From a bacterium (GTDB lineage: Bacteria; Bacteroidota; Ignavibacteria; UBA10030), in assembly GCA_043803945.1 (NCBI GenBank), contig JAZDJN010000076.1:1-20399 (forward strand): DNA of 20,399 nt, read 5' to 3'. This document shows, piece by piece, positions 166 through 19,485 of the stretch. The notes under the pieces were generated by a model. That model did no database searches, had not been told where the DNA came from, and was given only the letters and a program-made list of their open reading frames with translations. Numbering within the stretch: the stretch's first letter is position 1; every line of letters starts with the position of its first letter. The translations under genes were made by a program, and so were the position numbers.

Positions 166-3100
166 CTACCGTGCCTTATAGACTTTTGCATACACCACCG
201 GCACGACAATCAACGTTAACAGCATGGAAGATGTTAATCCCCCAATGGTGCCGACCGAGAGCTGATACCAGAGGCTCGATTTATCTCCCATTAAGAGCAA
301 GGGAAGCATTCCGCCGATTGTTGTAAGTGTGGTCATTAAGATCGGTCGAAGACGTGTAGATGCAGCGTCAATCAGGACGGACTCGCTCCTGTTTTCTCCA
401 TGCAGGTGGCGGGCAAGATAGTCTACCAGCACAACAGAGTTGGTGACAACAATGCCGATAAGCAATACCACCGCTGCATAGCCGCCGCGGCCGAAAGGAA
501 CCTCCATGAGATAAAAGGCAAGAAAGAGCCCGATGAGAGAGAGTGGTATTGCAAGGATGACGATGAAGGGCTTAAGGAGTGATTCATAGAGAGAAGCGGT
601 AACCATGAAAACAATTGTAAACGCCAGCAGGGCAATGAGGATAAGGGAAATCTCCTGTTCTTCACGAAATCTGAAGAATTCATAACCCTGGTTGAATTGA
701 TAGCCGCTCGGCAAAGGCATAGCCTTTATTGTTCGCTCGAGATGCTGGGTACCATACTGCCATGGGCCTTTATATTCATAGGCAATGTTCCGGATGTATT
801 GTTGATTCTCGCGGGTAATTTGCGACGGCACACGGCGCTCTTCGAGCTTGATCAATTCACCCAGGCGAACCTGATCGCCGCGGCCATTGGCGATGACCGA
901 CTTCTGTAAATCATCGACGGAATAGTTCCGATACCCGATGAATTTAACGATGTACGGAACACGCTCTCCTTCAATATTGAGTGTGCTTTGCGTTACCGAA
1001 CCGCGGGAGAAATTCAGAATTGCCCGGACCACCTCCGCCACGGTGAATCCATGCCGTGCAATGGCATCGCGATCAACCGTGACAAACAGCTCAAATGTTT
1101 TTCTCCCCCACCCTCCTTCGATATCGACATCCTGCACGCGTGGATTACGCGAGAGCTGTTCCTTAAACTCCTCCGCAATTTCTCTGACTCTATTGTAGTT
1201 GTAACCCAATATTCCCACACGAAAGCTCATACTGCCGCCCTCACCACCGCTATAAAAACCGGGACCGAATCCGCTGACACTAATCGACGCGCCTCCTGTC
1301 TGCGCTGCAAATAATGTCAACTGATTTTTGAGTTCATAGGGAAGCGCTGTCATGGCAGCGGAGTCGGCAACATCGATTCTGATGACAGCGGAGCCCTCGG
1401 CAACACGCGTCGTTACTTTTGCAATGCTGCTGCCGTATTCCAGTGCCTGCCGCTCAATATCGGAGGCGATCTTGTCGAACCGCTCAAGCTCCGTTCCCCG
1501 CGGAAAGCTTACATATACACTGAGATAGGTGCGTTCGACATAGTTCCATATCTCTCCTTTGGAGACTTTTGCGAAGAAAAGATGCGATGAGCCGCCGAGG
1601 ATGTAATTAATGTACGGTTTTGCTGTAAGGTAATACTCGCTGCCAAAGGTGTAGCCATACAATGCAGAGAGCAGCGATTGCGATTCGATTTTATCCGGCA
1701 TCAGCCAGACCGGCAGGCCAAATATCCATATTGTGAGAGCGATAACGAACTTTTTCCTCCTGAGTGAAAACCGGAGGAATGCCTGATACAGCTTCGTTCC
1801 TTTGTCGCCAATCCATTCAAGAGGAGAGATTCGAAATGGCGTCAGGTCGATCCGGTAAGTGACTGTCGGTATCAAGGTGAACGAAACGAAGAGGGACATT
1901 ATCAAGGAGACTGCAACCGCGATACCGAAGTCGAGAAAGTACGGCTTCAGGTCGGGGGGAAGAAATTCGAGAGGCAGCAATGCACCGACGGTTGTGATGG
2001 TTGATGCAATGACAGGAAGCGCAATTTCATGGACAGCATGAGAGACGTTACTGCTGCTTGCCTCATCCTGCCCTGCGAACATACTCCCTCTCCTCATAGG
2101 AGAGGGAAGGGGTGAGGCTGTAATTGCACTATCTGCGGAACTCCATCCTTCCCTTCCCCTAAGAGGGGAAGGTATTTTTATTTCTTGTAGGTTACTATGC
2201 CGATAAATATTATCCAGCACGACTATCGAATCATCGACAAGGCGTCCGAAGCCGAGGACGAGCCCGGCCATGGTAAGCAGGTTCAGACCGATGCCGAGTC
2301 CCCAGAAGATGAGAAACGTTCCAGCGAGCGAGAAGAAGATAGAGGAAAGCACAAGTGCCGATGCCTTAAGGCTTCTCAGAAAGAGCGTCAGCACAAAGCC
2401 GATGCAGAGCAGTGAGATGATGATTTCCTTGTAAAGGTTATCGAGATCGCTGCGAAGCTTTTCACTCTTATCGGACTCTTTGATCAATTTTAATCCTGGT
2501 GGAAAATCTTTTTGAAGCTCGGCGAGTTTATCAAAGACTGCGTCGGCAAGCTTCAGTGTGTTAACTCCCTGTTCTTTATTAATGATGAGTGTAATTGAAG
2601 GTTTTCCGTTGATACGGTAAAAACTCTTCACCTCGGCAACGCCATCGCGCACGGTGGCGATATCCTGCAGGCGCACCGGCACATCATTCGGCAGTCGGGC
2701 AACGATCTGTGATTCAAGCTCATGCAAGTTTGTGGTGCTGTTACGGACAGCGATGATGATCTTTGCTCCCTGCTCATCGACAGAGCCGACAGGCTTATTA
2801 AATTCGATCTCTCTCAAGCGTGAGGTAATTTCGTCGCTGTTGAGGCCGAGCGCAACGACCTTTGCCGGATCTAGCGAAACCTGCAGTTCCCGTTTTTCTC
2901 CTCCAATAACCTGTGCATTTGCAATACCCTTCAGGGAGAGCAGGGCCGGCACGATTGTCTCTTCTGCATATTTGCTGAGCGCCTGGGCAGACTGGCCGCC
3001 GGAGAGTGAATAGGAGAGGAAGCCCTGCAGGTCGCGCAAATCGCGTGGCACATAGCGGGATATAATTGGTGGAGATGCACCCGGCGGCATGCTCTCGGCA

Positions 3101-3450
3101 AAGGCGGCGAGTTTCTCATTCAACTCCAGCCGCGCAAAGTTCATATCGATGCCCGGTTCGAATTCGAGATCGACCGATGTCTGGCCTTCATCGGATGTAG
3201 AGCTTACCTTGCGGACACCCTGGACGGTGTTGGCAATCTCTTCGATCGGTGCGGTAATAAATTGCTCCATGGTTTCCGGCGAGGTGTTGCCCCACGATGC
3301 AGCGATAGAAAGGCGCGGATATTCTTTTTCCGGTGCAAGTTCCAACGGCAGGTGCATAAACGCAAAGGTTCCACCGACGAGCAACGTGCCATAGAGCATG
3401 CTGACGGCAACAGGGCGATTGATGAGTTTTTCGAAGAAGTGGTGCGACAT
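166..3450 (-). CDS. RND efflux permease subunit (AcrB/AcrD/AcrF family), 1094 aa
   Basis: N-terminal RPVAV + TM1, 'E.FITAPIEE', TM4 'GRLVDDSIVV', TM11 'RLRPILMTTLTT', C-terminal 'GGLTSSMLLTLIVVPVVY'. About 40 aa palindrome-derived insertion after TM4. Confidence 0.95.
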   Translation of the reverse strand: MSHHFFEKLINRPVAVSMLYGTLLVGGTFAFMHLPLELAPEKEYPRLSIAASWGNTSPETMEQFITAPIEEIANTVQGVRKVSSTSDEGQTSVDLEFEPGIDMNFARLELNEKLAAFAESMPPGASPPIISRYVPRDLRDLQGFLSYSLSGGQSAQALSKYAEETIVPALLSLKGIANAQVIGGEKRELQVSLDPAKVVALGLNSDEITSRLREIEFNKPVGSVDEQGAKIIIAVRNSTTNLHELESQIVARLPNDVPVRLQDIATVRDGVAEVKSFYRINGKPSITLIINKEQGVNTLKLADAVFDKLAELQKDFPPGLKLIKESDKSEKLRSDLDNLYKEIIISLLCIGFVLTLFLRSLKASALVLSSIFFSLAGTFLIFWGLGIGLNLLTMAGLVLGFGRLVDDSIVVLDNIYRHSNLQEIKIPSPLRGREGWSSADSAITASPLPSPMRRGSMFAGQDEASSSNVSHAVHEIALPVIASTITTVGALLPLEFLPPDLKPYFLDFGIAVAVSLIMSLFVSFTLIPTVTYRIDLTPFRISPLEWIGDKGTKLYQAFLRFSLRRKKFVIALTIWIFGLPVWLMPDKIESQSLLSALYGYTFGSEYYLTAKPYINYILGGSSHLFFAKVSKGEIWNYVERTYLSVYVSFPRGTELERFDKIASDIERQALEYGSSIAKVTTRVAEGSAVIRIDVADSAAMTALPYELKNQLTLFAAQTGGASISVSGFGPGFYSGGEGGSMSFRVGILGYNYNRVREIAEEFKEQLSRNPRVQDVDIEGGWGRKTFELFVTVDRDAIARHGFTVAEVVRAILNFSRGSVTQSTLNIEGERVPYIVKFIGYRNYSVDDLQKSVIANGRGDQVRLGELIKLEERRVPSQITRENQQYIRNIAYEYKGPWQYGTQHLERTIKAMPLPSGYQFNQGYEFFRFREEQEISLILIALLAFTIVFMVTASLYESLLKPFIVILAIPLSLIGLFLAFYLMEVPFGRGGYAAVVLLIGIVVTNSVVLVDYLARHLHGENRSESVLIDAASTRLRPILMTTLTTIGGMLPLLLMGDKSSLWYQLSVGTIGGLTSSMLLTLIVVPVVYAKVYKAR
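2084..2172. repeat. Inverted pair of REP-like hairpins (second family) inserted in frame in the RND gene
   Basis: TCCCTCTCCT-CAT-AGGAGAGGGA (2085-2107) and CCTTCCCCT-AAG-AGGGGAAGG (2152-2172). They translate as PSPLRGREGW...SPLPSPMRRG. Confidence 0.8.
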
Positions 3451-4925: not shown

Positions 4926-5987
4926 TTATTTTAGCTTTAATCGATAGTGCACAATCGTTGGATTTCGAAAATCTCCGTCTTCATCAGGCTTGGCTGATTT
5001 GAGAAGATAAAAAGAATCTTCGCTTACAGAATAATCCTCAAACTCTTCCGGAAGTTCTACTTCGGATGCTATCGGAGTACCATCTTTCAAATAGATATCC
5101 AGCCAGGAATATGGTTTATTGCCGTCGATTGGAGAATCCTGCTGGAGGAATACAAAGATAAATTTGTCTTTCAGCATGGATATATTTCTGATAGCTGATA
5201 TTTTCCTCAGATACTCTACAAAGCCTTTCCCACTATTCAGCATAACTGCATCAGGTTTTTTATAAGGGTGATAAGAGGAAGACGGCGCCCCAAAGATTAG
5301 AATCAATTCACCGCGTGCATTGAACTTTTTAATCGCATACTCCCATCTCTCAAGCTCATAGATATTATCCTCGCTATCCATGACAATCCCTCCGCCAAAC
5401 ATTCCCAGCCTTCTGTCATATTCTTTTGAAACAACTGCGAACATGCCCGTCATATTCCCAAGGCTGTCATATCTGGTTATCGTTAACTCTGAGGGCTGCG
5501 GATCGGTCCTCCAGAAAAAGAATTCAGACTTCGAGTTCTGAAGAAATTTGTGGCCATACGCATTCATTTTAATTGAACGCAGAAATGATCCATCTGGTAA
5601 GTATTGAATAATCTTCCGTTGATAGGAATCATAAAGAAGGATATTGCCGTGTCGATCAGAGGTAATATCCATCGCATTGATATACTCATTTGGACCTTTT
5701 CCATTACCCCCCAATATCCCCGCAAATCTTCCATCCTGATGAAACCGGAACACTTGTTGTTTTGAGGATGAGCTAAGAACAAGATATCCGCCGCCAGGCA
5801 CGATAGAGAATCCGCCAATGCGTCCGATCAAATGATCCTTGCCCGTGGAGAGCTGAATTTCATTTACCTTTTCAAAGGCTTCATTGAAGTGTTTCTTCGG
5901 GCCCGGTTGCTGATTATTTGGTGAGCACGATAGTATGAGACAGAGTATTATTGCCAGGAATACAGAAACGAATGAAGTGCTTTTCAT
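4926..5987 (-). CDS. 6-bladed beta-propeller (NHL/DUF5128-like) lipoprotein, 353 aa
   Basis: Lipobox ILSC; GGNGKGPNEY motif; repeated D..GNI.LYD / Y..DG.F blades; GAAGGG SD. Confidence 0.85.
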   Translation of the reverse strand: MKSTSFVSVFLAIILCLILSCSPNNQQPGPKKHFNEAFEKVNEIQLSTGKDHLIGRIGGFSIVPGGGYLVLSSSSKQQVFRFHQDGRFAGILGGNGKGPNEYINAMDITSDRHGNILLYDSYQRKIIQYLPDGSFLRSIKMNAYGHKFLQNSKSEFFFWRTDPQPSELTITRYDSLGNMTGMFAVVSKEYDRRLGMFGGGIVMDSEDNIYELERWEYAIKKFNARGELILIFGAPSSSYHPYKKPDAVMLNSGKGFVEYLRKISAIRNISMLKDKFIFVFLQQDSPIDGNKPYSWLDIYLKDGTPIASEVELPEEFEDYSVSEDSFYLLKSAKPDEDGDFRNPTIVHYRLKLK

Positions 5988-6896: not shown

Positions 6897-8017
6897 TTAA
6901 ATGGTGTACTCAATCTTATATTTCTCAATCCAACTTGTGAGATACTTGCTTTGAATCAGGATATAGACACTCGAATCAGGTCCAATAACTGCACATTTAT
7001 ATTCATATCCATGATCATAGGGAAGCGTGGGGAGTGCGAGACGGGCAGTGTGTTCTCCGTTCCTGTTGTAATAATCGATAATTGACTCTTTACCTTCAGC
7101 ATCCGTAACAACAGCGAGCAGATAGTTACCCACCATAGCAATGCCAATCAATTTCCCAGAAGGGAGATTTTTCAGTTTTACACCAAAAGAAGTTTCTGAG
7201 AGAGATGACTGAAAATCGAAACGGCTTGTCGTGCTGAACGAAACGGGCATAGTAAATTCCTGCTCACTATGGCTCTTCAAATCAAGCATCATCATTCGAT
7301 AGGGATGTCGTTGACTGTATACTATTCCCGTTGATGATAGGGGCAGCATCCGTGTCATATTAGCTGTGTAACTGAACGTAGCCAGAGAAGGGCGTGCTCT
7401 TACATCAGAGTTCAGTATTTTATTAATAATACCCTCCTGTGGCTCTACAATTGTTCCATAGAATTCAATTGGCAGGGGTGAATGAATCTTGTACATATCT
7501 ATCGGTTTCGTGGTAAGTCTGAGAAAATATCTGCTCGTCAAAAAATAGAATCATTCAGGAGAACCGCATCGTCACAGTCATCCTTGAGAATCGAGCTCAT
7601 TATATATTTGCCTACTCTGGAAAAGAGGGTGATAATTTTACTTCTACTATCAAGAACCAAGAGTCTACTATCAGATTCTATTCGCAACCTGTTAATGTCT
7701 TGAAATTCACCCGGACCCTTTCCCTTTCGACCGAACTTTCTTATTTCCTCTCCAGTCTTCGCATCAAGAACCCGGACATAACATTCCGATCCATCGCCTA
7801 AGAAAAGCTCTTCGTTATTTGATACTGCTATATCTCGTATTTTATAATAGGAGGCTTGACTCTCACTCAGAGTATCAGGTGTACCAATAGTAAGAACATG
7901 CCTTATTTTTCCATGAAGGATCGTAACATCTTTTCGCTGTGAATATAACTGGCAATACAAAATTGTGACGATAATTAACACATATCGAATTATTCTCACC
8001 GATGTTCTCTTTTTCAT
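6897..8017 (-). pseudogene. Frameshifted 6-bladed beta-propeller exported protein (ORFs 7538-8017 + 6897-7541; 373 aa if joined)
   Basis: The N-part has a signal peptide and GRKGKGPGEF. The two parts align colinearly with 11784-12911. One extra T in the T6 run (7540-7545) fuses them. Confidence 0.8.
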
Positions 8018-8169: not shown

Positions 8170-8292
8170 CTCGTTTGTCTGCCGACTGTTATCTGCCTTC
8201 TGTCCTCTTTTACTTGCTCCTTTATACTTAATACTTTCTACTCTCCCCGTCTCCCCCTCACCCACTCACGCTCTTACTCTCTCACCCTCTCG
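8170..8292. repeat. Degenerate 7-/8-mer pyrimidine-rich tandem repeats
   Basis: TGTCTGC CGACTGT TATCTGC CTTCTGT; TACTTAA TACTTTC TACTCTC; CCCCGTCT CCCCCTCA CCCACTCA. Confidence 0.55.
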
Positions 8293-11200
8293 AACCCCTC
8301 CCAATCGCCCACTTATCAATGTAGGTGTAGACAATCGGAATGAACACGATTGTGAACAGCGTGGAGGCTATCAATCCGCCGACAAGCGGAATGGTCAATG
8401 CACGTACCAATTCGGAGCCGGTGCCGAACTCGAATATGAGTGGAATCACACCGAGCACTGTCGTCACCGTTGTCATCAAAATCGGGCGTAGGCGTTTCTG
8501 CATTCCCTCCTTTACCGCATCGAACAGCGCCACACCGTCGCGGCGCATCGAAGTGATAATATCTACCGCAATCACCGCATCGTTATCCACCGCACCGATC
8601 ATAATGACAATACCGATCAGCGACATCACATTGTAATTCTGCCCGGCAAGAACCATTGCACCGATCGCTCCGATAAAAGCCAGCGGACTGGAGAGGAGAA
8701 TGACAAAGGGATAAAGTATCGATTCATACTCCGCTGCTAGGATCATATAGACAAGGAAAAGCGACAGCAGGATGACAATAAAGAGGCTGCGGAATGATTC
8801 TTGAATTTCTTCATTCTCGCCGCCCACCGATATACGGTACCCCGCGGGGAATGTAAACTCTGCCGCCCGTCTCTCGATCTCCTCGACAACACTCCCTACC
8901 GACCTGCCGCTGACATTCGCCGTCATAAGAACGGCACGCTGCTGGTTCTCCCGCCAGATTTCCGAATACCCTTCTGTTCTTTTCCACTCGATTAGCTCAC
9001 GGATGGGAATGGAAGTCTCTCCAACGGTGATCGATGCAGCAAGCAGGTCTTCCATTGTTCTTTGCTGTTCAATCACCGGCTGGACACGGACGGTAACCTT
9101 CCTGTCGAAATCGCTCAGGAATGTCGCCTCCTTCCCCCGAACGTGCTGTGCAATTGCCTGTGCAACTGTTTGAACCGAGAGTCCGTACCGAGCCGCCCGA
9201 TCGCGGTCGATGACAATGCGGTATTCTGGACTTCCCTTTTGCGCTCCTGTTTGTAAATCTACCAGCGCCGGAATTTCCCTGAGCTTCGGTGCAAACTCAT
9301 CGGCAATCCGAAACGAGGTTGCCGGGTCTTTACCGAGGATTCGGATCTTGATATCATTTTGTTCGGGCTGCAGAATCTGCTCGAACGTTGTGCCCCGTTT
9401 CTTCACGTTGAACGTCACACCGCTCAACGAGGTTTGCATCCGTGCAAGTGTTGCACGCACTTCAGTAATAACATTGTCGGTCTCCGCCTGGTTGCTTACT
9501 TTAACTTCAAGATCGGCACGCTCCGCCGCAGCGTTCGAGACTGTCCAGTAATTCTGCTCGTCGGTTATTCCCGCCGAAGTATAGACACCTTTGACAGAGT
9601 GCAGCTTCAGAATGACCTGTTCAATCTGCAATGCAAAACTTGAAGTCCCCTCAAGCGTCGAACCCTTCGGCATCATTACCTGAACGCTGAAACGGCTCTG
9701 ATCGATATCGGGTGCAGGCTCGGTTTTTATTGTGAGCGAAACTAGGATGGATAATATGAACAATCCTACCGTTCCGACAACAACGGTGAACCGATGCTGT
9801 AATGCCCAATTGAGATACCTTGTTAATCCTGCATTTGAACTACTACGCACACCATCGACGATCCGGTGAAAAGGTGGAGAAATTGTGGTGAACAGTTGGT
9901 CAAAGAGATTCAGAAGATTGAAGTAGAGCCACACACTCAGTGCGAGCAGTGCCCGTATTGGAACGGTGATCCAGAACCAGATACGGCCAGGCATACTTCG
10001 CTGCAACGCGACAGCCAATTTCAAGTATTGCCGGACAGAATAGTCCTTTCGCTTCAACACGATCTGTCGCGAAACAAGCATCGGCACCAATGTGACTGCA
10101 ACGACAAGCGACACAAGCAGCGAGACTGTCATTGTAATGCCCATATCGAGAAAAAGCTGTGAGGCAACACCTTCCACAAAGATGATGGGGAGGAAGATGG
10201 CAACGTTGGTCAATGTGGATGCCGTAACGGCGAGATTGATTTCCCTGCTTCCTTCAATTGCCGATTCTATTAAAGACATGCCGCGCTCACGAAGACGCGT
10301 AACATTTTCGATGACTACAATGGCATTGTCGCCTAACATCCCGATACCGATAGCCAAGCCGGTAAGCGAAATAATATTGAGATTGATACGGATGAAATAC
10401 ATAACAATGAATGTTGCCAGAATCGAGATCGGCATACAGAGGCCGATGATGACCGGGTAGCGCACACCTTTGAGGAAGAAAAAGAGAACAAGAAATGCAA
10501 GAAATGCGCCGATGACGATTGCCTGCTCTACATCGTCGATGGACTTCGAGATGAACTCAGCCTGATCGGTGATGACATCGAGCTTAAGGTTTGGATATTC
10601 ATCGCGTAGCTGCTGAAGAACGGTGTGGACGCGCTCAGACACCTGCACGGTATTGGTGCCTGCTTCTTTTCGTACCTGGAGTGCGATGATTTCACTACCG
10701 TTGTAGCGGGTCAATCCGGCTCTCTCTTTAAATGTATCTGAGACACTTCCGATATCGCTCACACGGATTGTCCGGCCGTTGCTTATTTTCGCTACGATAA
10801 CATTCCGGATTTCATCCACACGTTTGAACTCGCCGACAGTGCGCAGGGAATATCTGAAGAGTCCGTATTTGATCGTGCCACCGGGAAGATTCAGGTTTGC
10901 CGCTGCAAGAGCCGCGGAGACCTGATCCAGTGTGAGTCCATGCGCCTGCAGTTTACGCATATCGATCTCGACATGTATTTCCCGTTCAAGTCCGCCCAAA
11001 ACAGCCGCCTGTGCAACGCCCTCTACCTGCTCGATGCGCCGCTTTATCAGCGCTCTTGCTGTTTCTTTCAGCTCAACAAGCTGTGAATATTTTGTTGATT
11101 CGTTTTCTTTTTTCTCTCCAATGCTCCCTCTCTCTCTGTTTTCCTCTCTCCCCGCCTGCGTCCCCTCAAGCTGGGAGGGAGCCCCGCCTGCCGATATGGT

Positions 11201-11713
11201 ACCGCCGAGGCGGGCAGGTCCAGCTCCCGACCTTAATGCAATCTCTTCTCTCATCTCTCTTCTATCTTCTCTCTGCTTTTCCGAAACCGCTACCGTCATC
11301 ACCGGTTCCGTCGAAGGATCGATCTTGAGGATTGTTGGCCTGCCTGCCTCACGCGGCAATCCAGCACGAAGCTGATCCAGCTTTTCACGCACTTCGAGCA
11401 TAGCAAAATCCATGTTGGTGCCCCAATAAAACTCAGCCGTTACTACCGAGATACCTTCGCGAGAAGCAGAGGAGGTTCGTTTGACACCTGTTACGGTTCC
11501 GAGAGCGGACTCGATCGGCTGCGTCAATGTGTTTTCAACTTCTTCCGGAGAGACATTCGGATAGGTTGTCTGCACGGTAAGTTTGGGGATCTTAATGGGC
11601 GGAAGAAAATCGATAGCAAGGTTTTTGAAGGCGATCATGCCCAGCGCAACGACACCGATCGTGAACATGATGATGGTAACCGGGCGCTGGATGGAAGTTG
11701 ATGAGAGAGACAT
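8282..11713 (-). CDS. RND efflux permease subunit (AcrB family), ~1143 aa from the ATG at 11713
   Basis: MSLSSTSIQRPV start typical of the family; SPEEVENTLTQPIE; TM4 GMLGDNAIVV; RLRPILMTT. About 60 aa insertion at ~11085-11280. Confidence 0.95.
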   Translation of the reverse strand: MSLSSTSIQRPVTIIMFTIGVVALGMIAFKNLAIDFLPPIKIPKLTVQTTYPNVSPEEVENTLTQPIESALGTVTGVKRTSSASREGISVVTAEFYWGTNMDFAMLEVREKLDQLRAGLPREAGRPTILKIDPSTEPVMTVAVSEKQREDRREMREEIALRSGAGPARLGGTISAGGAPSQLEGTQAGREENRERGSIGEKKENESTKYSQLVELKETARALIKRRIEQVEGVAQAAVLGGLEREIHVEIDMRKLQAHGLTLDQVSAALAAANLNLPGGTIKYGLFRYSLRTVGEFKRVDEIRNVIVAKISNGRTIRVSDIGSVSDTFKERAGLTRYNGSEIIALQVRKEAGTNTVQVSERVHTVLQQLRDEYPNLKLDVITDQAEFISKSIDDVEQAIVIGAFLAFLVLFFFLKGVRYPVIIGLCMPISILATFIVMYFIRINLNIISLTGLAIGIGMLGDNAIVVIENVTRLRERGMSLIESAIEGSREINLAVTASTLTNVAIFLPIIFVEGVASQLFLDMGITMTVSLLVSLVVAVTLVPMLVSRQIVLKRKDYSVRQYLKLAVALQRSMPGRIWFWITVPIRALLALSVWLYFNLLNLFDQLFTTISPPFHRIVDGVRSSSNAGLTRYLNWALQHRFTVVVGTVGLFILSILVSLTIKTEPAPDIDQSRFSVQVMMPKGSTLEGTSSFALQIEQVILKLHSVKGVYTSAGITDEQNYWTVSNAAAERADLEVKVSNQAETDNVITEVRATLARMQTSLSGVTFNVKKRGTTFEQILQPEQNDIKIRILGKDPATSFRIADEFAPKLREIPALVDLQTGAQKGSPEYRIVIDRDRAARYGLSVQTVAQAIAQHVRGKEATFLSDFDRKVTVRVQPVIEQQRTMEDLLAASITVGETSIPIRELIEWKRTEGYSEIWRENQQRAVLMTANVSGRSVGSVVEEIERRAAEFTFPAGYRISVGGENEEIQESFRSLFIVILLSLFLVYMILAAEYESILYPFVILLSSPLAFIGAIGAMVLAGQNYNVMSLIGIVIMIGAVDNDAVIAVDIITSMRRDGVALFDAVKEGMQKRLRPILMTTVTTVLGVIPLIFEFGTGSELVRALTIPLVGGLIASTLFTIVFIPIVYTYIDKWAIGRGSRG
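11151..11233. repeat. Nested palindromic elements in frame within the RND gene
   Basis: Host CTGGGAGGGAGC (11171-11182)/TCCAGCTCCCGACCT (11219-11233) is interrupted by a 36-nt CCCGCCTGC...GGGCAGG insert. Another CCCGCCTGC-starting fragment sits at 11151-11170. Confidence 0.7.
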
Positions 11714-11783
11714 TTGTAATTGCGTATTTAATAAGGGGTAATAAGTTATTTCAAAATTCTTCTCACTTATATAAATAGCCACA

Positions 11784-12911
11784 TCATAATTGAATAGAGA
11801 ATCTCTCTACCCAGTTCAAATGAAGTTCATTGCTCACCAGCAACAACAATTCTTGGTTTCCTTTGAATGCAGCGCCAAAAACTTTTAGCCCTTTTTTGAG
11901 TGGTGGAATTATCAATCTTTTCGAAAAAACGCCAGAGAGGCTGTAGCAATCCAAATAATTACTCTGCCCATCGATACTTATTATCGGAACAAGCAAATGC
12001 GTCCATCCATTTTTTATTCCTAATGCACTCCCAGAATTATTCATCTGCATAGAACTTCCCCTGTCAATGATCTGTATGTCTAAACCACTTTGTGTATCAA
12101 AACCAACGCTGGGATTTACCTGTTCAATCGTTTTTGTTTTTAAATCATACCTGATCAAGATATATGGATTTCTCTGGGAATAGAGTACGCTTTGGTTATC
12201 GGCAAGTAACACCACGTTTGTCATTCCAAAAGAAGATAACATACTTCGAGCCGAATTTTTTAGAAGGTTATTATTAAATAGTTTTAGCAACCCCTCTTTT
12301 GGTTCAATAATTTTCCCAAATTCATCAAGAATTCTATTATTCTTTAGTGAAATAATTCTTAACGGTTTAAATTGTTGATCCAACAGGAAACTACTTGTTA
12401 TGAGCTGAGTACCGTTGATAAAATCTATATCGTCCGTAAGTCTTTCCAAAGAGATTGTGCGAATGAGTTTTCCATTCTCTGAGAATATTGTACAACGCCT
12501 CAATGTGTTATCTATCACGGATAACTGTTTGTCGTGAAAGATTTTCATTGGACCTAATGTTTTAAACTCTCCCGGGCCACTGCCGATTTTACCTATTCGA
12601 AATAGTTCACTTCCCGTTTTTAGCGAAAACACTCTTATACTTCCTGCCTGTTGATCGGCCAAATAGAGCTTGCCATCCTCTGAACATTCAATACTTCTAA
12701 TACCATAAAAATATATGTCATTGGTCGTATCGGGGAATCCAAACGATGAAATCTTGGTGATTTTTCCTTTGATTGCTTTCACATTTAATTGACAAAGCAC
12801 TGTCGTAGATGTAAATAGAATGATAGCAAACACAAAACTGTATAATATTCGGATACACCAATTATTGATTATCAAGATATTCAATCCTTCTGGAATTCGT
12901 TTTATCTTCAC
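11784..12911 (-). CDS. 6-bladed beta-propeller exported protein, ~375 aa (start uncertain)
   Basis: Signal-like hydrophobic segment ending TTVLCQ; DGKLYLAD; GKIGSGPGEF. Paralog of 6897-8017 (SQRNPY/SQRHPY). Confidence 0.85.
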   Translation of the reverse strand: MKIKRIPEGLNILIINNWCIRILYSFVFAIILFTSTTVLCQLNVKAIKGKITKISSFGFPDTTNDIYFYGIRSIECSEDGKLYLADQQAGSIRVFSLKTGSELFRIGKIGSGPGEFKTLGPMKIFHDKQLSVIDNTLRRCTIFSENGKLIRTISLERLTDDIDFINGTQLITSSFLLDQQFKPLRIISLKNNRILDEFGKIIEPKEGLLKLFNNNLLKNSARSMLSSFGMTNVVLLADNQSVLYSQRNPYILIRYDLKTKTIEQVNPSVGFDTQSGLDIQIIDRGSSMQMNNSGSALGIKNGWTHLLVPIISIDGQSNYLDCYSLSGVFSKRLIIPPLKKGLKVFGAAFKGNQELLLLVSNELHLNWVERFSIQL

Positions 12912-12946: not shown

Positions 12947-14083
12947 TCATCTCTTCATCCTGTAGATTTGGATTCTTGCATTGTGTTCATTTTGTTTTAT
13001 AAGAGTCTCTTCAATCTTTCTGCCATTGATATTTAATCCGGCGGGAAGAAAAACGTATAGCACATCATTAAGAACAAATGAATGTGATACCAGATATGGT
13101 ATAACGATACCGAGCATAATTGCTGCCCCATTTAACGAATAGATATCCATAAAATGTTTTCTAGATGATATCGTCTCGGGAGTCATTCTAAATAGAAGGA
13201 TAAGGTCGTTGTTGAGAAGCTGTATTCTGCCTACGGTGGAATTGGATAGCTCATACTTCCTCGCATCTCTCATATTTCTTTGTATTTCCGCTGTAGGTAT
13301 TTTTTCTGAGGCCTTCCAGTCAGAAGGAATATCACCGAATGAATCCAGAAGCTTACCATTTTCGTTAAACACTTGAATTCGATATTCATAGGGAGAGGCA
13401 TGATAAATTAATCCGGTTCTATCGATTACTATGCCGCCACCCTCTCGTTGAAATGCTGGTGTAAATGACTTTGGATGAGGAGCAAATCTTACCAGTTCCT
13501 TTCCCTCAGGATCATATTTCACCACAGTTCCTTCCGTTGAACCTTTTCTGGTTACTATGCCAATTGCATACATGTAAATATTCTTCGCTGCATCGAATTG
13601 GAACTGTGTGAAGGGATTACCTAGCATGAAGGTGGCATTGTCGTACTCGCCGGTCGAGGTATAACGAATTAATTTCCCCTCTGTGCTGAAAATATAGATT
13701 TTACCATCCCGGTCGAACTGTGTATCATAAGCTTCAATGTATTCCCCGGGACCTCTTCCGTTACTTCCAATTTCGCGTACAAAACTGCCACTGCTGTCGA
13801 GCAAGTAGCAGCGTCGAGTTGTATAACGATCGTAAATCAAAAATCTTCCATCAGTACCTACAATGATCTGCGGATGTTGACCAAGCAGGAAGCCTTTCCG
13901 TTCCGATAAGATAATTTGTCGTTCCAATGCAAAGATCTCATTAAAATCATTTGCATCCGTGAAGAGAACAGGGTAAGTGTCTTTGAATGTTATTGGAATA
14001 TCTCTTTTGGGAGGTTTCGCACAACCAGAGATAATTAACACGAAGAGAGTAACATAAAGTAGTTGTACAACGAATTGTTTCAT
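12947..14083 (-). CDS. 6-bladed beta-propeller lipoprotein, 378 aa
   Basis: Lipobox ISGC; GSNGRGPGEY; DRDGKIYI and EYRIQVFNENGKLL blades; AAGGAG upstream. Confidence 0.88.
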   Translation of the reverse strand: MKQFVVQLLYVTLFVLIISGCAKPPKRDIPITFKDTYPVLFTDANDFNEIFALERQIILSERKGFLLGQHPQIIVGTDGRFLIYDRYTTRRCYLLDSSGSFVREIGSNGRGPGEYIEAYDTQFDRDGKIYIFSTEGKLIRYTSTGEYDNATFMLGNPFTQFQFDAAKNIYMYAIGIVTRKGSTEGTVVKYDPEGKELVRFAPHPKSFTPAFQREGGGIVIDRTGLIYHASPYEYRIQVFNENGKLLDSFGDIPSDWKASEKIPTAEIQRNMRDARKYELSNSTVGRIQLLNNDLILLFRMTPETISSRKHFMDIYSLNGAAIMLGIVIPYLVSHSFVLNDVLYVFLPAGLNINGRKIEETLIKQNEHNARIQIYRMKR

Positions 14084-14426: not shown

Positions 14427-15458
14427 TCACCTTAATGTATACCTCCCAATCTTGGGATTCGCCTCCGGATAATCCTCCAGCTTGACGTAGATGCTATTGC
14501 CGTGACATCCAAGGACATCCTTTTCAAACGGAATTGACTTTACAAGCAAGTTACCATCCGTGTCATAGAAATCGAGTTGATTATCGTACTGGATGAACAC
14601 AATCCCCTTATCGAGAACAAGTGGTCCTTGCATCAGCACCGGACTTCTACGGCCTTCAGATTCTTCATAGATAATCTTCCCTTCACTAAATTCTTTTATG
14701 AGCTTGCCCTCTGAATCATACTTCCGGATTCTGTAAAAAAGCGGATTTATTTCGTAGATGAAGCCCGATGTATCGATGACCATGCCGTTGTATCCAGCCG
14801 AGAAGTTGAGGTCGCTAATTTCTTCTGGGATGAGAGCAAACGATATCATATGTTTTCCAGTAGAAGAAAATTTATGGATCGTTGGAAATATGTTGGGCTT
14901 TTTTGATCTTATGAAGCTCGGTTGAAGCATTCCGTCATAAAGGAAGATTTCATCGTTTTTATTGATATGAATGAAATACTCAGTTCTATCGGGGAACATC
15001 ATCGATTTATAGTTGTAATTCGAGGTATATACCAAAACTTTTCGACCCATATAATCATTAAGGAATATCTCTCCCTCTCTGTTTATCGCAACACTAAGGG
15101 GAGTTTGATATTCCCCCGGTCCATGTCCCTGGCCTCCCAAATCACTAAGAAACTTACCTGTGGTGTCAGCAATGAAGACGGTTTTCGATTGCCATCCATC
15201 GCAGATGATTATATTACCTTGCTGATCAATATCGAAGTCGGTTATCAACGAGATGAAATGATCTTTGCCGGATGATAGTTGTACCTCTTTCTCCAGCACA
15301 GTAAAGTCAGCGAAGGACTTTGCTCCTTTAATAAGATCTAAGGATGCAGGTGGCGGGGGAGCAGCCGTTGTCTTGGTCTTTGACTTCTTACAACCCGACA
15401 ATGAAAAAATTAGGAAGACCAGTACCGTTGCGACCACAGAGCTACTATGATATGCCAT
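14427..15458 (-). CDS. 6-bladed beta-propeller lipoprotein, 343 aa
   Basis: Lipobox LSGC; Pro linker; QLSSGKDH shared with 4926-5987 (QLSTGKDH); GGQGHGPGEY. Confidence 0.88.
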   Translation of the reverse strand: MAYHSSSVVATVLVFLIFSLSGCKKSKTKTTAAPPPPASLDLIKGAKSFADFTVLEKEVQLSSGKDHFISLITDFDIDQQGNIIICDGWQSKTVFIADTTGKFLSDLGGQGHGPGEYQTPLSVAINREGEIFLNDYMGRKVLVYTSNYNYKSMMFPDRTEYFIHINKNDEIFLYDGMLQPSFIRSKKPNIFPTIHKFSSTGKHMISFALIPEEISDLNFSAGYNGMVIDTSGFIYEINPLFYRIRKYDSEGKLIKEFSEGKIIYEESEGRRSPVLMQGPLVLDKGIVFIQYDNQLDFYDTDGNLLVKSIPFEKDVLGCHGNSIYVKLEDYPEANPKIGRYTLR

Positions 15459-18444: not shown

Positions 18445-19485
18445 ATGAAGGAACGATTTAGAATATCCACTCGAACGACGCATGTCTTGACGTTCTTCTT
18501 CGCTCTCACCGCCGGCATTATTATCTACCTCGTAATCCATGATTCCAATTCAATGGCTTTCCCTCCCGCCCAGCCAATAACCTACAGCATGTTACTCGAT
18601 CCAGGTGCTACTCTGGTTGACACATCGGCTATTATAAGCGTACCAGGAAGGATGCAATTTGATCCGGAGGGAAATGTGTACATACTTGAAACCCATTTTA
18701 GGGGAGGTCTTCAAGATCGTATATATAAGTTTGATCCAAAATTCAATCATAAAAAACTGATCGGGGAGGTAGGTCGGGGACCTGGTGAATACACTCGCCC
18801 AACGGATATCTGGATAGATAAACGAGGGTATCTCTATGTACCAGATGTGGGTAATCAGAGGATTAGTATCTGGAACAATACTGACACACTCGTTAAGCTG
18901 ATTACAAATATTTTTATCCCCTCTGACACGCGAATTGCCGTTGATAGTAAAGGATTCATCTATCTCAGCAGCTTTTTCACAGACAGTCTTGTAAGAAAAT
19001 TATCACCAGACGGCTCATTTTTGAGACTCTTCGGCAAAAAGAATCAAAATAAGGATAGATCCATTGTCCGATTGGAGAATGAAAACTCGATTGATTTTGA
19101 CAGCGATGGGAGATTATGGATGTCGTTCCGGTACAGGCCCGTCATAAGAACATATGATACAACAGGAGTTCTGCTCTGGGAGAGAGAGTTTCTTACACCG
19201 GAGATGGAAGAGGAGCGAAAAAAATACGCAGGAAAGCCAGGCGCGCTTGAATACAACGTCGATATTGCTTCCGTACCATGGGGAGGAATACTTCTTTTCA
19301 CACGAAATCATATCAATTTATTGAACCATAAAACGGGTGCAATCCAATTTCGATATCGCACTCCGGAATTACAATACGGTATGGTTGATGATATTCTGTT
19401 CTGTCAGAATGATTCCTCTCTCTGGTGTGCGAGTGCACATTTTGGGCATATCCTTAAGTTCGATTTTGCTCCTGATACACAGTAA
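18445..19485 (+). CDS. Membrane-anchored NHL-repeat/6-bladed beta-propeller protein, 346 aa
   Basis: N-terminal TM; GEVGRGPGEYTRPTDIWIDKRGYLYVPDVGNQRI is a canonical NHL blade; AVDSKGFIY. Confidence 0.9.
   Translation: MKERFRISTRTTHVLTFFFALTAGIIIYLVIHDSNSMAFPPAQPITYSMLLDPGATLVDTSAIISVPGRMQFDPEGNVYILETHFRGGLQDRIYKFDPKFNHKKLIGEVGRGPGEYTRPTDIWIDKRGYLYVPDVGNQRISIWNNTDTLVKLITNIFIPSDTRIAVDSKGFIYLSSFFTDSLVRKLSPDGSFLRLFGKKNQNKDRSIVRLENENSIDFDSDGRLWMSFRYRPVIRTYDTTGVLLWEREFLTPEMEEERKKYAGKPGALEYNVDIASVPWGGILLFTRNHINLLNHKTGAIQFRYRTPELQYGMVDDILFCQNDSSLWCASAHFGHILKFDFAPDTQ

Follow-up and report, generated by a model that had tools for sequence, protein, structure and literature searches.

Why does a permease of the RND (AcrB) type carry, in a cytoplasmic loop, about 40 residues that its relatives lack, and what kind of DNA encodes them? 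The question is raised by a gene at positions 166 to 3450 (minus strand) of the window, i.e. of the whole stretch of 20,399 nt that was analyzed. The window belongs to a 5.54-Mb draft genome (118 contigs) of the Ignavibacteria type.

An RND permease with an extended loop

The gene is an intact open reading frame of 1094 aa, devoid of internal stop codons. Its product matches the Pfam family ACR_tran (E = 2.3e-164) and, upon comparison with solved structures, MdtB, CmeB, MexB and AcrB. In an alignment of 55 sequences, the permease itself included, it has the shared residue at 78/78 invariant columns, among which is the aspartate pair of TM4. Within a collection of 5.8 billion proteins, the permease is a singleton, and its nearest homologues are about 64% identical. 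The gene sits at a contig end. No adaptor gene was identified directly upstream of it, and when the upstream genes were compared with four orthologous loci, there were either no matches or weak ones to beta-propeller paralogues.

The earlier note on this DNA had counted 55 aa between TM4 and TM5, where the second RND has 15. When counted from the conserved R after TM4 to the (H/R)EI of TM5, the cytoplasmic loop has 57 aa versus 17 aa, which leaves the difference at 40. In the alignment, the segment with the extension has 88 residues versus 45-52 in 54/54 aligned homologues (hits P0003-P0062 minus six that are short or partial; weaker hits were left out of the alignment). The excess is 39-40 residues, both over these homologues and over four of the five orthologues from related genomes, which have the short loop. 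The fifth (G035) has an extension of its own at this loop (about 20 aa), which is free of a triplex-type hairpin. The loop is thus not conserved at the protein level, which is what an ortholog alignment had been proposed to check. Residues 433-473 of the permease are unmatched in the solved MdtB (9lyq_B). Judged from its composition and from the alignment to solved pumps, the additional segment is probably a disordered cytoplasmic stretch.

Our best estimate for the inserted DNA is 2060-2176 (117 nt or 39 codons, no strand assigned), with edges that are accurate to about 10 nt. The corresponding peptide of about 39 residues (roughly PSPLRGREGW...MFAGQDEA) is rich in Pro, Ser, Gly, Arg and Glu. 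The reading frame is kept, as had been stated earlier, and two of the six frames are open across the insert. Among the homologues there is no empty site at high identity (the nearest are about 64% identical, the permease being a singleton), and for this reason the boundaries of the insert are estimates. The one candidate for a target-site duplication is the hexamer GTTACT, which occurs in direct orientation at 2047-2052 and 2191-2196. Its two copies are 144 nt apart, a spacing that does not agree with an excess of 117 nt, and they may be there by chance. An intein or another self-removing insert was considered and rejected, given that the segment has only 39 aa, is of low complexity and shows nothing that looks like an intein.

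Two opposed units, each with a third block

The insert contains two hairpins. Hairpin A (2085-2107, plus strand) consists of the pyrimidine arm TCCCTCTCCT (2085-2094), the loop CAT and the purine arm AGGAGAGGGA (2098-2107). Hairpin B (2152-2172, minus strand) reads, on that strand, CCTTCCCCT, loop CTT and AGGGGAAGG, with the arms at 2152-2160 and 2164-2172. The arms of 10 nt in A and of 9 nt in B are 100% complementary, each pair enclosing a loop of 3 nt. The hairpins are oppositely oriented, as the earlier note had recognized, and they form an inverted pair. The module is palindromic overall.

What the earlier note missed is a third block in each unit, which mirrors the purine arm (G opposite G; T or A opposite A). 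In unit A, this block is GGGTGAGG (2110-2117, plus strand), with a mirror match at 8/8 positions. In unit B, it is GGATGGAG (2141-2148, minus strand), which matches at 7/8 positions with one mismatch; in other copies the block reads GGATGGGG, a mirror at 8/8. Each unit is thus tripartite, with pyrimidines first, then the complementary purines and then a block of G, T and A, the parts being separated by loops of 3 nt and of 3-5 nt. By this architecture, units A and B are potential intrastrand triplex motifs of the BoxC/PIT/TMECO type. A spacer (2118-2140, no strand assigned) lies between them.

Additional features are found on both sides. A C-rich block on the plus strand, GCCTCATCCTGCCCT (2060-2074), forms an outer stem with 2104-2118 in the DNA fold. 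Its minus-strand complement is G-rich and resembles a third block, and the same stretch adjoins the hairpin of a DUF559 gene on contig C85 (see below). The left 25 nt of the insert (2060-2084) are outside the A-spacer-B module that is known from relatives. Hairpin B is followed by a T-rich tail (2173-2182, plus strand, antisense to the gene), which is terminator-like as a consensus match only.

Folding was evaluated with Watson-Crick pairs only. A stretch of 146 nt has z = -4.98 as DNA (0/200 shuffles as good) and z = -3.08 as RNA (1/200 shuffles as good). The pattern CCCTCTCC-N2-8-GGAGAGGG, which describes the A-type hairpin, has one match in the window, while 0/100 shuffles matched. An Rfam scan of 1700-2600 with a permissive threshold gave no match that approached its gathering score; of the relevant ones, Whalefall-1 ranked first (16.6 bits versus 37).

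Copies in this genome and in others

The A-type hairpin pattern occurs at nine loci of the genome and in none of 20 block shuffles. For the complete three-block motif there are 46 matches, which are mostly intergenic, with some in frame in hsdR and hsdM. A mirror block is found on 45/122 strand-sides of the pyrimidine/purine hairpins of this genome. When flanks were swapped as a control, the mean was 13.6% and the maximum 21.6% (500 permutations), and on the wrong side there was a mirror block in 1/122. Across these hairpins, the mirror block is thus enriched, and it covaries.

Unit A has 88-90% identity over 40-43 nt to copies on contigs C67 and C65, and unit B has 84-91% identity over 34-41 nt to copies on C104, C105, C3 and C10. 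Both unit A copies are located at contig ends. When unit B was compared with a profile built from five intergenic doublets of the genome, which are inverted and about 78 nt long, it matched with E = 3.9e-07. Other genomic copies, for which the earlier note had suggested a search, thus exist. They match single units only (84-91%), and nhmmer did not find the 117-nt module in full anywhere else in the genome.

Two hsdM genes illustrate the behavior of the motif within coding regions. One of them (C78) has about 29 extra aa in frame at the motif when compared with 3khk; in the other (C54), the frame changes at the motif. In other genomes, exact three-block patterns of 24 and 26 bases recur (0 with the reversed control). 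The unit-A pattern is present in 13/61 genomes, G000 included (again 0 with the reversed control), while unit B is represented in several phyla, with at least 120 stretches that contain it. In Betaproteobacteria, it is found in frame inside three genes, all conserved, which code for Pyr_redox_2, Radical_SAM_N and leucyl-tRNA synthetase-type proteins. The complete arrangement A(+)-spacer-B(-) flanks a DUF559 gene on either side in G016; G020 and G002 have it at solo sites. The spacers in relatives have about 10-50 nt and are not conserved in sequence.

Association with DUF559 nuclease genes

DUF559 proteins have a PD-(D/E)XK, Vsr-like nuclease fold. In this bacterial order, triplex-type repeats cluster around a small gene of this family, a connection that the earlier note had not made. 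The genome has four full-length DUF559 genes. Motifs lie within 24 and 50 nt of two of them, and one of these two genes is located in frame inside hsdR, as a complete cassette. The other two have no motif within 1.4 kb. In relatives, a motif lies within 300 nt in 23/30 DUF559 loci; with a strict scan, 7/30 are devoid of it. At these 30 loci, 45/46 motifs are at most 300 nt away from the gene, a zone which comprises 21.6% of the non-ORF bases (binomial P ~4e-29, computed over loci that are non-independent). In other phyla, a DUF559 gene was found within 600 nt in only 2/80 unit-B loci.

Hairpins that flank a given DUF559 gene on either side appear to be more alike than those from different loci, which is suggestive. 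By Hamming distance, a crude measure, the mean is 1.1 for pairs flanking one gene versus 2.1 between loci, and a distance of at most 1 is found, by the same crude measure, for 6/10 same-gene pairs versus 31% between loci. The family has the features of a hairpin-ended cassette: a DUF559 ORF, triplex-type hairpins within about 300 nt, and gene-less copies elsewhere. The insert in the RND permease is ORF-less and would count as one of the gene-less copies. The link between DUF559 and the motif is an association, and from it we infer mobility driven by DUF559. A literature search found no paper that describes a DUF559-hairpin link or cassette. A MITE would be expected to stem from a parent element that codes for a transposase. 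Here, no transposase is linked, and it is DUF559 that such units enclose.

Origin of the insert

We consider it probable that a triplex-motif repeat module has inserted in frame into the permease gene and is tolerated there. The module, with its two opposed units, would have entered the DNA coding for the TM4-TM5 cytoplasmic loop. The arms are all-pyrimidine or all-purine and therefore free of stop codons. This copy may have ended up, or persisted, in an open frame, where translation would yield about 39 additional residues, which are expected to be tolerated rather than functional. The open frame by itself is weak evidence of selection, with two of six frames open and with the frame change in the hsdM gene on C54. 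The module may be an ORF-less copy of the hairpin-ended cassette. It is conceivable, though somewhat doubtful, that the DUF559 protein of the cassette acts on the folded units in single-stranded or supercoiled DNA and thereby spreads them.

A more sceptical reading is that the permease gene is non-functional or dispensable, so that the insert is a neutral event in a decaying gene, with the frame kept by luck. With two of the six insert frames being open, retention of the frame has a prior of roughly one in three, and one hsdM gene of this genome (C54) changes frame at its motif. The location at a contig end and the lack of an identified adaptor gene directly upstream also fit. Decay is nevertheless unlikely for a gene with 1094 codons that are free of stops and frameshifts, an ACR_tran match of E = 2.3e-164 and conformity at 78/78 invariant columns, the paired aspartates of TM4 included. 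Even less likely is a local function of the element, be it as a pause in translation or membrane insertion, as an antisense terminator, or as a deletion or recombination hotspot by which the pump is switched. Perfect stems and third blocks of 8/8 and 7/8 demand either recency or maintenance, the mRNA stretch has a folding energy of -53.4 kcal/mol, hairpin B with its T-rich tail fits the terminator consensus on the antisense strand, and such motifs have been tied to local genomic instability (Holder et al. 2015, PMC4666352). The same paper states in its introduction, however, that PIT elements have neither promoter nor terminator activity in E. coli. In addition, no aligned homologue has anything at this site, which argues against a conserved role.

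Two further possibilities concern the nature of the sequence itself. Local slippage or duplication in a low-complexity loop could generate pyrimidine and purine runs, which are simple sequence, and the resemblance to repeats would then be one of composition alone; the identity to other copies is indeed just 84-91% over about 40 nt. Such an origin is very improbable, because the match extends over the ordered blocks, the loops and the flanking third blocks (doublet profile E = 3.9e-07), because the exact patterns of 24 and 26 bases recur in other genomes with a reversed control of 0, and because the two-unit arrangement also adjoins DUF559 genes. Finally, the assembler might have spliced a repeat into the contig, a concern for a draft of 118 contigs in which the unit A copies on C65 and C67 lie at contig ends. 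This can hardly be the case, as the same coding frame with orthologous residues is found on both sides, and the artefact would need to add an exact multiple of three at a loop.

The insertion of a repeat module is thus retained as the best explanation, and the same genome has further in-frame copies in addition to the complete DUF559 nuclease cassette within hsdR. It is tempting to speculate, although the evidence leaves this a tentative proposal, that BoxC/PIT/TMECO-type motifs are the non-autonomous partners of DUF559 nucleases. They would then constitute a REPIN/RAYT-like or homing-like selfish system across phyla, with stop-free arms that allow genes to be colonized in frame, and the inserts in the RND and hsdM genes, together with the DUF559 cassette in hsdR, would be three stages of one process. 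There are two experimental handles: DUF559 is a candidate enzyme for defined hairpin and triplex substrates, and the naturally filled sites in conserved genes provide a route to empty alleles and to insertion rules. For annotation, a caution follows: where an otherwise conserved protein has an odd loop of Pro, Ser, Gly, Arg and Glu, the loop can stem from repeat DNA instead of being a feature of the protein.

Comparison with known repeat systems

REPs are extragenic by definition. The earlier note had described the insert as a REP-like doublet within the permease ORF. An in-frame repeat doublet is supported by the sequence, but the third mirror block places it with BoxC/PIT/TMECO and not with the REPs. 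There are similarities to the REP/REPIN-RAYT system: the short palindromic units form inverted doublets, many copies are gene-less, and a few flank a small gene of the nuclease type. That gene is, however, DUF559 and not a Y1 HUH transposase. The proposal that the family is distinct from RAYT-linked REPs is borne out, as 0/13 Y1_Tnp (PF01797) matches in the genome have a motif within 20 kb.

The resemblance to Rickettsia palindromic elements, also proposed earlier, is a fair analogy for an in-frame insertion that may be tolerated. As summarized in a review (PMC10969869, on Ogata 2000/2002), these palindromic repeats of about 100-150 bp are inserted in frame in unrelated genes and are read through as peptide. 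They are found in another taxon, and the likeness considered here is one of behavior. We know of no three-block triplex design in them.

For the proposed action of DUF559, the Ssn nucleases may serve as precedent. They combine a small nuclease gene with a cognate multi-copy repeat (NTS/SRM), which they are reported to bind and cut as single-stranded DNA (Chenal et al. 2025, PMC11893778). In contrast to DUF559, they are GIY-YIG nucleases with other repeats, and the abstract of that paper does not mention in-frame insertions.

The closest match is to the BoxC/PIT/TMECO motifs. These are abundant in many bacteria and, to our knowledge, have been unexplained since the 1990s. Units A and B share with them the pyrimidine stem, the purine stem, a mirroring third stem and short loops. 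They are likewise multi-copy and far above chance (46 motifs; nine loci versus 0 in 20 shuffles), often in inverted pairs, and with a copy number that is patchy between related genomes. As described by Holder et al. 2015 (PMC4666352, which also covers Hoyne and Maher 2000/2002), BoxC/PIT/TMECO are intrastrand triplex motifs; TMECO has the pattern CCCTCNCCC N3-6 GGGNGAGGG N3 GGGNGAGGG and forms a class II triplex in vitro as an isolated strand; 3610 TMECO copies were collected from 262 proteobacterial genomes, and function and means of spread were left unassigned. One copy in our genome (C78:3277) fits this pattern exactly. Unit A (CCCTCTCCT / AGGAGAGGG / GGGTGAGG) and unit B (CCTTCCCCT / AGGGGAAGG / GGATGGAG) are variants, which deviate from the consensus by at least one base per block, and the host is of the Ignavibacteria type while the published copies are proteobacterial. 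For TMECO in E. coli, that paper reports that there is neither a link to mobile elements nor a stable triplex in vivo, and in strain K-12 TMECO is described as "always located intergenically" (PMC4666352). Here, in contrast, the motif is tied to DUF559 genes, and a triplex-type module is located in frame within the gene for a conserved membrane transporter.

The permease gene and its extra segment

The RND permease gene (166-3450, minus strand) codes for a protein of 1094 aa (ACR_tran, E = 2.3e-164). Its source genome (G000) is a draft assembly of 5.54 Mb in 118 contigs (C-numbers), of which the window is C76. From the TM4 aspartates to TM5, the protein has 88 residues, compared to 45-52 in all 54 homologues that were aligned (35-64% identity; hits P0003-P0062 minus six short or partial ones, with weaker hits excluded). 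An earlier note, made from the sequence alone, had counted 55 residues in the loop against 15 in the second RND protein; a recount gives 57 against 17, which is the same 40-residue difference. As also noted then, the reading frame is kept throughout. Four of five orthologues from related genomes have the short loop, as do the 54 homologues, and the loop is hence not conserved. In the orthologue from G035 (locus L010, G035:C63, ~2725-2900), this loop carries a separate extension of ~20 aa. The DNA of this extension contains only an imperfect palindrome, without a triplex-type hairpin. With this extension besides the RND insert, the TM4-TM5 loop seems to have tolerated insertions repeatedly.

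When aligned to the solved structure of MdtB (9lyq_B), permease residues 9-432 match chain residues 16-436, and residues 474-533 match 438-497. Residues 433-473 are unmatched, and the alignment supports an insert position after TM4. At all 78 invariant columns the permease has the shared residue (the alignment includes the permease itself). Judged from these sequence comparisons, the extra segment is an insertion. The permease is a singleton in a collection of 5.8 billion proteins, so that there is no near-identical empty site to fix the boundaries. The best estimate, based on DNA homology and residue excess, is 2060-2176 (117 nt, with an uncertainty of ~10 nt at each end).

Six paralogous genes for DUF5128-type six-bladed beta-propellers are found around the two RND genes (4926-5987, 7538-8017, 11784-12911, 12947-14083, 14427-15458 and 18445-19485). 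In G031 and G035, ORFs that lie upstream of the orthologous pump show weak tblastn matches (E = 5e-07 and 2e-05) to one propeller ORF.

Hairpins and third blocks

The two opposed hairpins described in the earlier note are present, and both are perfect. Hairpin A (2085-2107, plus strand, 10 bp) consists of TCCCTCTCCT, the loop CAT and AGGAGAGGGA. Hairpin B (2152-2172, 9 bp, given in plus-strand reading) consists of CCTTCCCCT, the loop AAG and AGGGGAAGG. The pattern CCCTCTCC-N2-8-GGAGAGGG has one match in the window (0 of 100 shuffles had any) and is found at 9 loci genome-wide (0 in each of 20 shuffles). Compared to shuffles, a 146-nt stretch has a z of -4.98 when folded as DNA and of -3.08 when folded as mRNA (-53.4 kcal/mol).

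In both cases, a G/T/A block that mirrors the purine arm comes next to the hairpin, on one strand. In unit A (plus strand), the purine arm AGGAGAGGGA is followed by 2 bases and then by GGGTGAGG, which is a mirror at 8/8 positions, with G-G, T-A and A-A pairing at all 8. In unit B (minus strand), AGGGGAAGG is followed by 3 bases and then by GGATGGAG (mirror 7/8); other copies have GGATGGGG as third block (8/8). Hairpin B, together with a T-rich tail, matches a terminator consensus on the antisense strand.

A genome-wide scan resulted in 46 matches in G000 to a three-block pattern, in which an 8-nt pyrimidine arm and a perfectly complementary purine arm are followed by a mirror block with no more than one mismatch. 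The mirror block is found on 45 of 122 hairpin strand-sides. This compares to a mean of 13.6% and a maximum of 21.6% in 500 permutations, in which flanks were swapped among hairpins with other arms, and to 1/122 on the wrong side. A cruder control, with a directly repeated purine arm replacing the mirror, gave 32/122 at up to one mismatch; its discrimination is poorer, since many of the arms are close to symmetric.

By their sequence, units A and B share the design of the published intrastrand triplex motifs BoxC, PIT and TMECO. The TMECO pattern is CCCTCNCCC N3-6 GGGNGAGGG N3 GGGNGAGGG (Holder et al. 2015, PMC4666352). Both units are inexact variants of the consensus, while a copy at C78:3277 matches the TMECO consensus exactly.

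Copies in the source genome and arrangement of the units

Further genomic copies exist, as the earlier note had anticipated. Unit A recurs on C67 and C65 (88-90% identity over 40-43 nt) and unit B on C104, C105, C3 and C10 (84-91% over 34-41 nt). A profile built from five intergenic doublets (~78 nt) matches unit B with E = 3.9e-07 and unit A with E = 0.042. A genome-wide search of G000 for the whole insert returned no second copy. Motif copies in G000 are mostly intergenic, but some are intragenic.

In the RND insert, the third blocks face inward: unit A (plus) is followed by a spacer of ~22 nt and by unit B (minus). The intergenic doublets of G000 and the commonest doublets of its relative G020 have the reverse order, with third blocks outward and the ends GACCCC...GGTC. 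Examples of the inward order are found as well, both at solo sites (L204, L205, L209, L213, L215, in G020 and G002) and in G016, where a DUF559 gene is flanked on either side by an A-spacer-B module (spacer ~47 nt). This module does not include the leftmost 25 nt of the insert (2060-2084), in which there is a C-rich block. The complement of this block is identical to a third-block-like stretch that adjoins the hairpin of the C85 DUF559 gene.

At two contig ends (C65:96340-96728 and C67:25700-26156), unit-A copies lie within a longer repeated sequence that terminates both contigs. Probably, a larger repeat that includes unit A breaks the assembly there. A second, more numerous triplex-type family has ~20 loci in G000 (CCCCCTTT, loop, AAAGGGGG, loop, GGGGGATT; examples are C27:66134-66240, C40:23008-23130, C101:72640-72747 and C114:23225-23345). 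It often forms inverted pairs, 80-100 nt apart and with third blocks inward, which is the geometry of the RND insert.

Association with DUF559 genes

G000 has four full-length DUF559 matches. The distance to a motif is 24, 50 and 1488 nt for three of these, and the contig of the fourth has none. None of the 13 Y1_Tnp (RAYT) matches in G000 has a motif within 20 kb, which bears out the claim that the family is distinct from RAYT-linked REPs. Among 61 genomes from the same order, G000 being one of them, 13 contain the exact unit-A pattern with 1-17 copies each (a reversed control gave 0 in all), and 37 have DUF559. Of 30 DUF559 loci, analysed with flanks of at most 1500 nt, 23 have a motif no more than 300 nt away from the gene, while a strict scan detected no motif at the other 7. 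This 300-nt zone holds 45 of 46 motifs, yet represents only 21.6% of the non-ORF bases (binomial P ~4e-29, which is overstated as the loci are related). By tendency, hairpins flanking one DUF559 gene are of the same type, according to a weak test. The reading of the earlier note, a translated repeat doublet within the permease that is distinct from RAYT-linked REPs, was right in kind; more precisely, the doublet is a triplex-motif module of the BoxC/PIT type, from a family associated with DUF559.

Motifs and repeats inside other genes

At a triplex-type motif, the hsdM gene on C78 (7384-9066, minus strand, L075) codes for ~29 residues more than its solved homologue 3khk, with the frame kept (residues 449-481 against 498-501 of 3khk_A; overall E = 4.6e-138). 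The hsdR gene of the same locus (C78:286-4098, minus strand) contains several motifs and a complete DUF559 domain, all in frame. This domain (residues 364-468) is positioned between the HSDR_N and the SWI2/SNF2 ATPase domains, with three tandem hairpins upstream and one downstream. A further motif, matching the TMECO pattern exactly, is found ~100 codons ahead of it. In a second hsdM (L076, within the region C54:37207-39454), the frame changes at a 46-nt palindromic motif near the 3' end, and the true C-terminus runs on in a different frame. A sequencing error is possible, because the region has homopolymer runs.

Just upstream of this second hsdM is a free-standing DUF559 gene, itself preceded by a near-copy of the first ~20 codons at the 5' end of hsdM. 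The sequence gives the impression of a target duplication by the cassette.

The second RND gene of the window (8282-11782, minus strand) has an extra segment of ~65 aa (residues ~168-233, window 11084-11281), after which the Pfam match resumes at residue 234. Positions 11170-11232 are 94% identical over 63 nt to the intergenic C12:122582-122644, and a short motif of the segment, CTGGGAGGGAGCCCCGCC, recurs on many contigs. Thus, both pumps of the window bear in-frame repeat DNA, though from different families.

Spread beyond the lineage

An exact B-unit pattern (26 specified bases) was searched in a collection with one genome per species and matched at least 120 stretches. Hosts among the matches listed include Ignavibacteriaceae, many Beta-, Gamma- and Deltaproteobacteria, Poribacteria, Actinomycetota and Spirochaetia. 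For 80 of these loci flanks were available, and a DUF559 gene is within 600 nt at 2 of them. At 8/80 loci, the unit lies in a frame that stays open for 100 codons or more on either side. Five were dropped as spurious high-GC frames, judged on translations alone. Three host genes are real by Pfam: a Pyr_redox_2 gene with the match split into two stretches, a Radical_SAM_N gene with the match stretched by ~100 residues, and a gene with tRNA-synt_1 and Anticodon_1.

Origin and persistence of the insert

The arms are all-pyrimidine or all-purine and are therefore devoid of stop codons. The insert is open in two of its six frames, corresponding to a read-through chance of about one third per insertion, so that an open frame alone is no proof of selection. 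In AcrB-type pumps, the loop after TM4 faces the cytoplasm. There, the insert would add a segment with a high content of Pro, Ser, Gly, Arg and Glu. Because of this position, and with the rest of the protein undamaged, the insert is most likely tolerated selfish or repeat DNA. The stems are still perfect, which implies either a recent event or a maintained structure. As for the arrival of the module, a possible agent is a DUF559 nuclease that would recognize the folded units. Such recognition is suggested by the tight clustering of motifs around DUF559 genes and by the DUF559 fold, which matches a solved "endonuclease-like protein" (3hrl).

Comparison with known systems

Palindromic insertions that keep the frame have been described before: in-frame fusions caused by intragenic MITEs are "not unusual" according to a 2024 review, which gives particular mention to the Rickettsia palindromic elements (PMC10969869). 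No published description was found of triplex-type motifs inside genes or of their link to DUF559, in a searched literature that lacks most subscription journals; the DUF559 papers listed do not concern repeats, by title or abstract. The term 'in-frame' does not occur in the text of Holder et al., supplements aside (PMC4666352). According to that paper, the isolated TMECO strand folds in vitro into a class II purine triplex, while no evidence was found for a stable triplex in vivo; PIT elements lack terminator activity in E. coli; and TMECO motifs are associated with local genomic variability (PMC4666352). E. coli K-12 has 23 TMECO copies, including five inverted pairs, which are "always located intergenically" and without mobile-element association (PMC4666352). 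In this respect the motifs of G000 differ, some being intragenic and DUF559-linked. For the pairing of a nuclease with a repeat, the Ssn nucleases and their NTS repeats provide a published precedent (PMC11893778).
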